DNA of 64,000 bases from assembly GCF_048403405.1 (NCBI RefSeq), contig NZ_CP183135.1; one strand, given 5' to 3'. The position numbers were made by a program. Source of the stretch: Escherichia coli. GTDB taxonomy: Bacteria > Pseudomonadota > Gammaproteobacteria > Enterobacterales > Enterobacteriaceae. Shown one piece after another: positions 3,001-6,000 of the stretch. Within the stretch, counting starts at the first letter, position 1, and every line of letters starts with the position of its first letter.

Positions 3001-6000
3001 CATTAAAGGGCTGCGTTTGGGAAACGTACAATATTGTACGGTTGCGTTATCGCGCTCGGGTGTACTCCCGTGCTATACGGCGTTTTCAGAGGATTTGACC
3101 TCAATCGGATAACCTAAATGCAATACTGCAATGGCGATAACTTAAAAGGGATAGACGTTGACGCAAAATCAATCTGTTATGCATATCTATTGGTTAAATA
3201 ATGCGCTTAACGTTCAAAATTTTTCGATCTCCAGACTGCCCCCGTTCAGCTCGCATAGGAATTATGGGAGAGGATTTTGGCTGAACCGGACAGATATAAA
3301 CCCGTTACTTTTTATACCTTACAGATATGGTTCTTTTGACGTAATTCTTACCAATTTCATAGTCCGGGTTCCATGTCGCCAGATTATGGACACCGATTGC
3401 GGCAGCACTCACAGCTCCCAGAAGTGCTGTTGGTGACCATAGGGAGCCTGCCACCGCAGTGCTTCTGTATTCGGTGTATACGCGGCAGGTTAATTTCTTC
3501 TGCTGATGTTCAATCACATACTCCACTATTTTGACGGTTTCACTGATGTCGTTAACATTCGTGATATCAAAACTTTTGCGGTAAAAAATCAGGTCGTGTA
3601 GTTTCTGTTTGGTCAAAAATTCTGCGTTGAACGACTCAATCTGTACCGTTTCTGACATCCGTTGTTCCTCTCTTTCTTGGAGTCTGTGAATTTCCCTAGG
3701 CACGCGCCTTACGGTCAAACGTTGCACTTTTTCAGGGGCAGTGTATGTCAGAAAAGAATATATTGACTTGTATAAACGATCAATAATAAGAAATTGATCG
3801 TCTTAACTGTAAGCGTAAACCGACTGCCGTATGTGGGGGCGGTTTGGAGATCGGACATTTTTGTACTATAAGGGCTTCCCCGAACAGTCAACGTCGGTAT
3901 TTATGGTTTGTGTCTGCACTACAGTTAAAAATAAAGGGGAGAGACTGCGGTACTATAAACGGCCATAATGAATCGCTATCGATTCGGACCCTGATGAAAG
4001 ACGCGCGTGAGGCTCTTGTTCGTTAAGCGGATACGTATATCCTGTACAATAATCAGATATACCTCACGGGGTCTAACCCTTTATCATCAACGAGTTGCAG
4101 ATCAGATGGTCATACGGTTTCTTCCTGCTTTAGCTTGCTGAATACAGCCTGAAATCATCACCGTAATGCAATGATGCCCAGCACAGCCTTGCATTTTTGG
4201 CGGCGATGGCCACAACAGCGCGCCAGTATCCTCTGCGTTCGACCAGTGAACAGACCCAACGACTGAATAAGTCAGTCCTTTTCTCAGCGCCAATCAGTAC
4301 TGAACGAGCCCCCTGTACCAGAAGCGTTCGCAGATACGAATCACCGGCTTTTGTTATCCTGCCTAACTTCGACTTTCCGCCGCTACTGTATTGCGATGGA
4401 GTCAACCCCAGCCAGGCCGCCAGTTGCCGTCCATTTTTAAAATCATGTGCATTACCGATACAGGCAACCAGAGCACAGGCAGTTGTGGGACCAACTCCTT
4501 TTAGCTTCATCAGCCGCTGACTGCGGTGATCTGTTTTGGCTATGCGGGACAAAATTCGGTCATATTCAGTGATGTTAGCTTCAATGCGATCAACGTGTTC
4601 CAGTAAATCATCTACACATTGCTGAACCTGAAGAGGTAAAGAGCTCTTCTGCGCAGAAACCATGTGCCGCAAAGCATCTGTACTTTGTGGGGCAATGACG
4701 CCGAATTCTGATATCAACCCTCGAAGACGATTATATGTTGCTGTTTTCTCTTCGATAAAACCCTGTCGGTTACGATGCAGACACTGCATCGCCTGCTGGC
4801 TCTCGTCCTTAACTGGAACAAACCGCATATGTGGGCGACGAACCGCTTCGCAGATAGCCTGAGCATCAGCTGCATCATTTTTCCCTGATTTACCGGCCAT
4901 GCGGTATGGAGATACAAATTTAGCGGCCATCAGACGCGGCTCATGACCATATTGCAGAAACAATCTTGCCCAGTAATAAGCCCCGGAGCACGCCTCCATC
5001 CCGATAACACAGGGCGGTAAACTTGCAATCAGCCCGGGAAGAGCTGCGCGGGTTACTCTGGATTTCACCAGAACGGTTTTGCCATTTTGGTCAACCCCAT
5101 GAACAGCGAACACATTTTTAGCAAGATCGATACCGATAGTAGTGATGGTCATAACGAATCTCTCCAGGCTATGTTTACCCCATGATTGCACAAGAGTTAA
5201 TCAGGTGCATATCCAGGGGAAGTCCCTTCCATTCGTTAGGGGCATTTTTTAACCGATACTGATAAGTAACTGATTGATTCATCGTGATCAGCTATCGCCT
5301 TTAAGTTATTGCTTTTCTCTTATCGCATTTAGGTTATCTCATGTCCCTAAAGGTCTGCCAAACACCGTATAGCGTCCGAGCGCGATAACGCAACCGTACA
5401 ATATTGTACGTTTCCCAAACGCAGCCCTTAAACGACAGTAATCCCCGTTGATTTGTGCGCCAACACAGATCTTCGTCACAATTCTCAAGTCGCTGATTTC
5501 AAAAAACTGTAGTATTCTCTGCGAAACGATCCCTGTTTGAGTATTGAGGAGGCGAGATGTCGCAGACAGAAAATGCAGTGACTTCCTCATCTGGTGCAAA
5601 ACGAGCATACAGAAAGGGTAAACCTTTGAGTGAAGCAGAACGACAGAGAGCAGCTTCTGCGCGCAAACGATCTGTATGTAAAGAGATCAAGGTTTTCGTC
5701 AGACCAGAACTGAAAAACTGCCTTACCAGTCTGTGTGCAGAGGAAGGGGTAACTCAGGCAGAGTTGATAGAAAGGCTTATCGAGAAAGAGGCCTGTCACC
5801 GGAACATGATGTGATGGGGTCACATTCTTGCTAGTTTTTTCTGTCAGTGCTAGATTACTGATCGTTTAAGGAATTTTGTGGCTGGCCACGCCGTAAGGTG
5901 GCAGGGAACTGGTTCTGATGTGGATTTACAGGAGCCAGAAAAGCAAAAACCCCGATAACCTTCACCAGGTTTGGCGACTAAGAGAAGATTACCGGGGCCC

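Follow-up and report, generated by a model that had tools for sequence, protein, structure and literature searches.

TIME-COMPs consist of two Tn3-derived miniature elements (TIMEs) placed around a segment of DNA and accompanied by 5-bp target duplications, and examples with inverted TIMEs and AT-rich 5-bp duplications have been described (PMC4133298; PMC13367494). Here we analyze a 2420-bp unit in a 64,000-nucleotide stretch of Escherichia coli DNA from contig NZ_CP183135.1, which is referred to below as the window and is part of an IncF plasmid. The unit carries a gene for a 117-aa protein (orf117) and an IS110-family recombinase between long inverted repeats, and it is very likely best explained as two nested mobile elements, a TIME-COMP that holds an insertion sequence (IS) of the IS1111 type. 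As in the TIME-COMPs reported in 2014 (PMC4133298) and by Gomi & Yano in 2026 (PMC13367494), a short segment lies between two transposase-less elements that have Tn3-type 38-bp repeats, the 5-bp duplication is AT-rich, and the structure is plasmid-borne in Enterobacteriaceae; the arms found here are homologous to MITESen1. The unit differs in that its cargo is a gene of unknown function, whereas the published list holds resistance genes, and in that its arms are inverted, whereas those of the listed MITESen1 TIME-COMPs are direct. Further unlike the published cases, the arms belong to two diverged subtypes (the left a mosaic of MITESen1 and a 234-bp type, the right of the 234-bp type) and one inner repeat carries an IS. 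The unit is absent from the published list because that list covered only resistance-gene cargo. Its structure indicates that TIME-COMPs can carry non-resistance genes and sit on large IncF plasmids, a space that the 2026 survey itself describes as unsearched. The structure is common, and annotation pipelines give just "IS110 family transposase" and "hypothetical protein" for it, a puzzle that the present analysis explains. The arrangement, one known kind of mobile element inside another, is tidy but ordinary and changes no current concept.

A bridge RNA of IS621 was reportedly described by Durrant et al. in 2024. Elements of the IS1111 group have 11-13-bp subterminal repeats with 6-7-nt and 3-nt extensions, and in their seekRNAs the top-strand match lies 5′ of the bottom-strand match (PMC11187229). 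Two described IS1111-family elements, IS4321 and IS5075, have as their target the 38-bp repeats at the ends of Tn21-family transposons (Partridge & Hall 2003, cited in PMC11187229). The IS in the window resembles this pair in its fixed position and orientation within a Tn3-family 38-bp repeat, its subterminal repeats, the lack of a duplication, and the presence of guide-like segments in the 3′ non-coding region that match the target. We considered and rejected membership in IS4321/IS5075 itself, taken as identity of at least about 90% and insertion at the Tn21-repeat position: the transposase is 38% identical at the amino-acid level, the insertion lies at repeat position 32/33 as opposed to 21/22, and the target is a MITESen1-type rather than a Tn21-type repeat. 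The locus would offer a second natural example, in addition to IS4321/IS5075, of RNA-guided targeting of Tn3-family terminal repeats by an IS1111-type element, one in which the crossover point differs and the predicted guides change with the target.

The TIME-COMP and its insertion site

The unit occupies positions 3008-5427, is flanked by a 5-bp target duplication and sits 124 bp upstream of copB/repA2 in the IncFII backbone (Table 1). A 5-bp target duplication is a hallmark of Tn3-family transposition. When both flanks were joined with one TTAAA, the resulting 296-nt empty-site query was found in IncFII plasmids in one piece and at 100% identity over all 296 nt, and at least 2867 plasmid records cover 80% or more of it. 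Most IncFII plasmids lack the unit and carry the precise empty site. Because these plasmids have an uninterrupted site with a single TTAAA and the window has two, the unit is an insertion; the contiguity of the flanks as backbone without it favors mobility, which the initial annotation had raised as one possibility.

The whole unit is 100% identical in 247 plasmids of PLSDB, the left junction is common to 245 of these copies, and the order DUF2726 - orf117 - IS110 transposase - copB recurs in all 10 contexts shown for the exact orf117 protein. The near-single site and constant gene order therefore point to one ancestral insertion that has since been passed on with the replicon. In a set of 5426 complete E. 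coli genomes the unit is present in ~276 records, and the exact orf117 protein was found in 7463 blocks of an assembly collection.

At the ends of the unit the longest perfect inverted repeat is 54 nt (3006-3059 / 5376-5429), a length far beyond chance. A repeat search returned 57 nt at 98% (3003-3059 / 5376-5432), in which the sole mismatch falls on the central base of the TTAAA at the flanks, a direct repeat that lies outside the inverted repeat. Imperfect complementarity runs on to 3212 / 5234 (75% over 215 aligned columns), a second repeat-search pair in the arms aligns at 73% over 105 nt, and with the IS removed the arms measure 236 and 225 bp and are 76% identical throughout. The initial annotation had recognized a 54-bp perfect inverted repeat that encloses a 117-aa open reading frame (ORF) and an IS110-family recombinase, all of which exist; its coordinates for the repeat, 3015-3068 / 5380-5433, are 9 and 4 nt off, and the imperfect extension that it noted is longer than the ~150 bp per arm it allowed. 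It had also proposed the palindrome GTACAATATTGTAC, found at 3026-3039 and 5396-5409, as a binding or recombination site. This sequence corresponds to positions 19-32 of the outer 38-bp Tn3-family repeat and is just a part of it rather than a site of its own; its TTGTAC box is the one that, in the inner repeats, identifies the point of IS insertion. The long inverted repeat is two miniature elements facing each other.

Both arms carry terminal 38-bp Tn3-family repeats, which were aligned with MITESen1 and with the repeats of a Tn3-family transposon (85-89%), fall within 50-500 bp without a transposase gene or any ORF of note inside, and have independent copies elsewhere. These copies are solo elements of ~255 bp and 234 bp with GGGG...TAAG 38-bp repeats, present in F, ColE1-like and many other plasmids. 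Copies of the ~255-bp element from a ColE1-like plasmid, F and two other plasmids were aligned with the left arm; GGGGTCAGTTTGGATATAGAGAATTATTGTACGGTAAG and an imperfect inverse of it form their ends, and a distant BLAST search with the left arm gave matches in more than 2000 PLSDB plasmid records. The outer repeats of the unit start with GGGC and end with GGTTGC instead of TAAG. Compared with MITESen1, which is 256 bp in ISfinder (sequence from Table S2 of Gomi & Yano 2026, PMC13367494), the left arm is 76% identical globally and 80-92% identical in its interior, and it is a mosaic whose outer 40 nt are 97% like the 234-bp type. The right arm, inverted relative to the left, is 89% identical after removal of the IS to solo 234-bp elements at two loci of our set (L022 and L023); its inner repeat is completed by GTTAGG at 5235-5240 and its outer 38-bp repeat lies at 5390-5427. 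The arms are identical over their outer 52 bp and ~73% identical in the remainder because the left arm is a mosaic with an outer end of the 234-bp type. Inside the arms we found GATAACYTAAAWGCGATA repeats, a putative res, and a 50-nt stretch of the right-arm interior shows 82% identity to the region between tnpA and tnpR in a Tn3-family transposon of Citrobacter freundii (CP055705).

The 234-bp type stands alone at L022 1501-1734 and L023 1501-1734 and is ~65% identical to MITESen1, and ~50 records from complete E. coli genomes match it at 80-90%. The 2026 survey names four TIMEs, of which it is not one, and it may be unnamed.

Without the IS, the unit is a 1052-bp TIME-COMP: two TIMEs bound a segment, 5-bp direct repeats flank the whole at a target that is uninterrupted elsewhere, and the composite occurs in more than one genomic context (the IncFII site and the ColE1-like plasmid p1). 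The second context came from a search with an IS-less reconstruction of the unit, which gave one full-length match, plasmid p1 of E. coli J-8 (NZ_CP047008.1, 4505 bp, ColE1-like). The TIME-COMP in p1 (L021 1142-2194) is 98.5% identical and lacks the IS, and its inner repeat is uninterrupted, reading GGGGGCGGTTTGGGAAACGGAAATTATTGTAC/GTTAGG (here and below a slash marks the insertion or crossover point). The p1 copy has no flanking direct repeats and its right terminus has diverged. In that plasmid the TIME-COMP directly adjoins a cer-like Xer core (GGTGCGTACAATACAGGGTTATGTTAAATCACC, opposite strand).

The IS1111-type insertion sequence and its candidate guide RNA

The recombinase encoded between the arms matched NF033542, "IS110 family RNA-guided transposase", with E = 5e-105 and 351 bits (cut-off 140), and PF01548 and PF02371 are recorded on genes identical to its gene. 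The surrounding element has the features of the IS1111 group, namely a DEDD transposase, subterminal repeats, a longer downstream non-coding region and site-specific insertion free of duplication. The subterminal repeats, of the form AAGGG(A)CTTCCCC, lie at 5216-5228 (AAGGGACTTCCCC) and 3870-3881 (AAGGGCTTCCCC) with terminal extensions GAATGG(A) (6-7 nt) and TAT (3 nt), and the non-coding region comprises 263 nt 3′ of the recombinase gene (3867-4129) versus 81-82 nt upstream. Insertion took place at position 32/33 of the right inner repeat (TTGTAC/GTTAGG) without duplication, and the boundary is ambiguous by 1 nt (C at 3866 or 5234). We had also considered a terminus at 3835 (GGGGGCGG...), where BLAST matches to related IS begin, and rejected it: comparison with the IS-free copy and with MITESen1 identifies these 32 nt as target repeat. 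Five insertions, one of them a truncated remnant, lie at the identical repeat position, related IS copies with 87-95% nucleotide identity have unrelated outer flanks, and the CP055705 transposon carries a related IS in each of its two terminal repeats, with position and relative orientation as in the unit. The IS is a separate insertion, probably later than or independent of the TIME-COMP.

The transposase is 92.6% identical to that of IS1618, 85.3% to that of IS5708 and 59% to that of ISShdy1. Because these values match the ISEc76 row of a published identity matrix (92.65, 85.29 and 58.88), the IS is probably ISEc76 of the IS1618/IS5708 group, an assignment based on the matching values and not on comparison with the ISfinder entry. 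Within the group of ISEc76, IS1618, IS5708, ISCfr26, ISSm1 and ISLad6 the transposase is 85-95% identical, and the group shares with the IS here the ends GAATGGAAGGGACTTCCCC ... GGGGAAGCCCTTATA and the architecture of the 3′ non-coding region. A BLAST search of the unit against the window for further MITESen1-type repeats returned just one remnant, at 47194-47278 (minus strand). In this remnant 32 outer nucleotides of a MITESen1-type repeat, GGGGTCAGTTTGGATATAGAGAATTATTGTAC, run into 53 nt from the 3′ terminus of an IS that belongs to the IS1618/ISEc76 group, and the remnant is cut by an IS26 terminal repeat (GGCACTGTTGCAAA).

Within the 3′ non-coding region lies a candidate seekRNA or bridge-RNA target-binding module. 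Both the minimum free energy (MFE) and centroid folds place its two guides in an internal loop around a small hairpin. Each guide is identical to one half of the target, ATTATTGTAC/GTTAAGC; the two match opposite strands and overlap at the crossover. In these respects, which are predicted here at the sequence level, the module is like a seekRNA or bridge RNA (Siddiquee et al. 2024, PMC11187229): two guides in an internal loop, the strand order that is typical of IS1111 seekRNAs, and overlap at the junction. IS5708 has guides UAUCCUAC and AUUAACG at the same place for the target TATCCTAC/GTTAAGC, and in IS5075/IS4321 the guides AAAACGGA and UAUUUUC match TCCGTTTT and TATTT/TC of the Tn21 repeat, where insertion is at 21/22. 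When the four repeats of the unit were compared in this analysis, only the occupied one matched both guides, one on either side of the crossover; in the left inner repeat TTGTAC is replaced by TTGAAC, and in the outer repeats GTTAAG is replaced by GGTTGCG. These matches suggest that a guide RNA would be made and used by the recombinase. An Rfam scan of 2900-5600 by E-value returned chance matches only, with no bridge-RNA or seekRNA family among them.

Guide 2 of the related C. freundii IS, GACUAACG, fits the window target GTTAGG better than its own GTTAAG, and the reverse is true of guide 2 in the window. Either distal guide positions tolerate mismatches or IS variants swap between repeat types.

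Table 1. Positions of the nested elements, their parts and the neighboring genes in the window.
Feature	Position	Strand	Basis or remark
DUF2726 gene	2323-2892		left neighbor of the unit
TTAAA, left target-site duplication copy	3003..3007		sequence and empty-site match
Left arm, MITESen1-like TIME, 236 bp	3008..3243	+	alignment with solo ~255-bp elements
Left outer 38-bp repeat, GGGCTGCGTTTGGGAAACGTACAATATTGTACGGTTGC	3008-3045
Left inner 38-bp repeat	3206-3243		reverse complement is GGGGGCAGTCTGGAGATCGAAAAATTTTGAACGTTAAG, GGGG...TAAG type
Cargo segment, 591 bp, orf117 and native upstream region	3244..3834	-
orf117, 117-aa conserved protein of unknown function	3305..3658	-
Right inner repeat, outer 32 nt, GGGGGCGGTTTGGAGATCGGACATTTTTGTAC	3835..3866	+	arm alignment and IS-free copy; the IS separates the last 6 nt
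IS1111-type IS, 1368 bp	3867..5234	-	IS-free TIME-COMP and aligned independent copies
Candidate seekRNA / bridge-RNA target-binding module	4007..4067	-	3′ non-coding region of the recombinase gene
Stem GUGAGG / CCUCAC of the module	4062-4067 / 4007-4012	-
Guide 2, GCUUAACG	4021-4028	-
Hairpin, GGAUAUACGUAUCC	4029-4042	-	between the guides
Guide 1, AUUAUUGUAC	4044-4053	-
IS110-family DEDD recombinase, 340 aa	4130..5152	-	NF033542; annotated WP_000156883.1
Right arm remainder	5235..5427	-	with 3835-3866 forms a 225-bp TIME of the 234-bp type
TTAAA, right target-site duplication copy	5428..5432		sequence and empty-site match
copB/repA2	5557-5814		right neighbor of the unit
repA	6116-6973		follows copB/repA2

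Alternative explanations and the proposed history

We asked whether simpler structures could account for the unit. It could be one non-autonomous transposon that had ~230-bp terminal inverted repeats from the outset and was never composite. The identity of the outer 52 bp of the arms, the single insertion with its single duplication and the fact that neither arm was seen alone at more than 93% identity would all fit such an origin, yet both arms also carry an inward-facing 38-bp GGGG...TAAG repeat at their inner ends, both can be aligned over their full length with solo elements of many unrelated plasmids, and the arms are of two subtypes with just 76% identity, so we regard a single transposon as quite improbable. 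The long repeats might otherwise belong to, or have arisen from, the IS110-family element, which would make the 2.4 kb one unusual IS. The IS gene does lie between the repeats, and the sequence next to the IS is similar to the outer repeat, but an IS-free copy that keeps both arms and orf117 refutes this idea, related IS copies have unrelated flanks, and the IS has subterminal repeats of its own; its chance is practically nil. That IS-free copy bears out a suggestion of the initial annotation, an IS110 insertion into an element with long inverted repeats, and its premise that the IS110 family lacks long terminal repeats holds as well, these repeats being no part of the IS.

A different role was also conceivable, in which the unit acts as an invertible switch and recombination between inverted res-like sites flips the center, altering orf117 expression or read-through toward copB. 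Both arms have a res-like region similar to a Tn3-family tnpA-tnpR intergenic region, and TIME-COMPs bounded by TIME244 were reported in both orientations, in 52 versus 62 replicons (PMC13367494). Against this, all 247 full-length PLSDB copies share one internal arrangement with no inverted isoform, and 245 of them share the same left junction; the 10 contexts shown for the exact protein keep a constant gene order, and the unit has no cognate resolvase gene. We consider inversion very improbable, and the same observations speak against the invertible element that the initial annotation had listed among its options. A non-mobile feature of the IncFII replication-region backbone, such as a regulatory palindrome, would agree with the location directly upstream of copB/repA2 and with stable inheritance, but it is refuted by the precise empty site and by the many IncFII plasmids without the unit, and we give it next to no credence; the 117-aa ORF is likewise not a backbone gene. 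Two other suggestions were right in part. The structure is composite, as had been proposed, but of a kind already described (TIME-COMPs, PMC4133298; PMC13367494) rather than undescribed, and insertion of the IS is indeed targeted, though its target is the right arm's inner 38-bp Tn3-type repeat and not the outer palindrome.

Several observations weigh against a TIME-COMP holding an RNA-guided IS. With regard to the guide RNA, the MFE was no better than that of shuffled sequences (z = -1.1), and a five-sequence consensus fold of the non-coding regions was uninformative, the ISShdy1-type sequences aligning poorly and giving no usable covariation; we therefore relied on the guide-target matches instead. 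The present flank fits guide 1 at 9/10 positions and not at 10/10. Beside the IS, at 3848-3860, there are 5 substitutions in 13 nt relative to the IS-free copy, compared with ~1% elsewhere, which suggests either a later recombination or conversion patch or entry of the IS into a different copy of the miniature element. With regard to the TIME-COMP, the IS-bearing unit is essentially at one site (245/247) and gives no sign of movement since, and no cognate Tn3-family transposase with matching repeats was found in the 64-kb window, where BLAST of the unit returned only the remnant near 47 kb. No clean 5-bp duplication was found around four solo MITESen1-like copies, two solo 234-bp copies or the p1 TIME-COMP, and the IncFII insertion is therefore the only direct footprint of transposition. 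Many MITESen1 copies likewise lack duplications (PMC13367494).

We favor the nested TIME-COMP and IS and propose the following history. Two diverged MITESen1-family miniature elements in inverted orientation, with 38-bp repeats and a putative res, would have come to bracket the 591-bp segment with orf117. A Tn3-family transposase supplied in trans would have acted on the two identical outermost repeats, and the TIME-COMP would have moved as one piece into the IncFII backbone, generating the 5-bp TTAAA duplication, after which the inserted copy would have been inherited with the replicon. In a separate event, probably later or independent, the DEDD recombinase together with an RNA from the 3′ non-coding region would have integrated the IS at TTGTAC/GTTAGG of the right inner repeat, without duplication and in a fixed orientation. 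The circular IS junction predicted from this model would read ...CCCTTATA-G-AATGGAAGGG....

The cargo gene and related loci

In plasmids, the cargo segment was found only in the ~250 records that carry the unit. Together with ~145 bp of upstream sequence (to 3801), orf117 is 74-78% identical to genomic-island loci without TIME repeats. Because the island homology extends ~145 bp upstream and no TIME repeats are found there, the TIME-COMP appears to have captured orf117 with its own upstream region. A promoter and terminator scan gave fewer sites than in shuffled sequence.

The orf117 protein has 112 homologues with 40-90% identity across Proteobacteria, and the motifs CRVYTEYR and HNLATxNPDYEIGKN are invariant. 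It had no match in Pfam (searched with the single sequence and with all 50 aligned members), NCBIfam, PADLOC or PHROGs. An AlphaFold2 model (predicted local distance difference test, pLDDT, 76) has a predicted alpha/beta core, with the hydrophobic residues 66-93 poorly modelled. Foldseek of this model against the PDB returned nothing at E ≤ 0.001, and its AFDB50 matches are uncharacterized proteins, two of them with weak SLATT/SMODS-type labels. Our best guess, held with low confidence, is a small membrane-associated protein.

Among the orf117 homologues at loci L013 and L034-L038, close ones lie in a conserved set with genes for a DUF4234-like protein and a ~460-aa protein and, on the opposite strand, a dynamin/MMR_HSR1-type GTPase, whereas more distant ones belong to islands that have AlpA, YagK/YfjJ and DUF932 genes. 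This gene set may be an uncharacterized accessory module. In a broader scenario, orf117 would represent a family of small proteins that lacks annotation, has a hydrophobic stretch and normally resides on genomic islands. Its capture by a TIME-COMP and fixation beside the replication-control region of pandemic IncF plasmids would reflect selection for some function (exclusion, defence or plasmid fitness, for example), and MITESen1-type repeats would serve the IS1618/ISEc76 group as RNA-specified safe harbors, so that the IS would also be carried along when the TIME-COMP moves. We think this scenario unlikely as a whole.

The C. freundii transposon mentioned above is an autonomous Tn3-family element (CP055705.1, L014 408-11825) with tnpA, tnpR and a cargo of CPBP protease, HlyD and ABC-exporter genes. 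Its repeats are 85-89% identical to MITESen1 repeats, and its tnpA-tnpR intergenic region (4890-4941) resembles the interiors of the miniature elements. The 2026 survey (PMC13367494) reported no res match for MITESen1. This transposon is a candidate parent of MITESen1 and its intergenic region a candidate res site, neither of which that survey had identified. As a last observation, the DUF2726 - orf117 - IS - copB segment is also present on two E. coli contigs of chromosome size (L026 and L030, >5 Mb), which suggests that segments of IncF plasmids have integrated into the chromosome.

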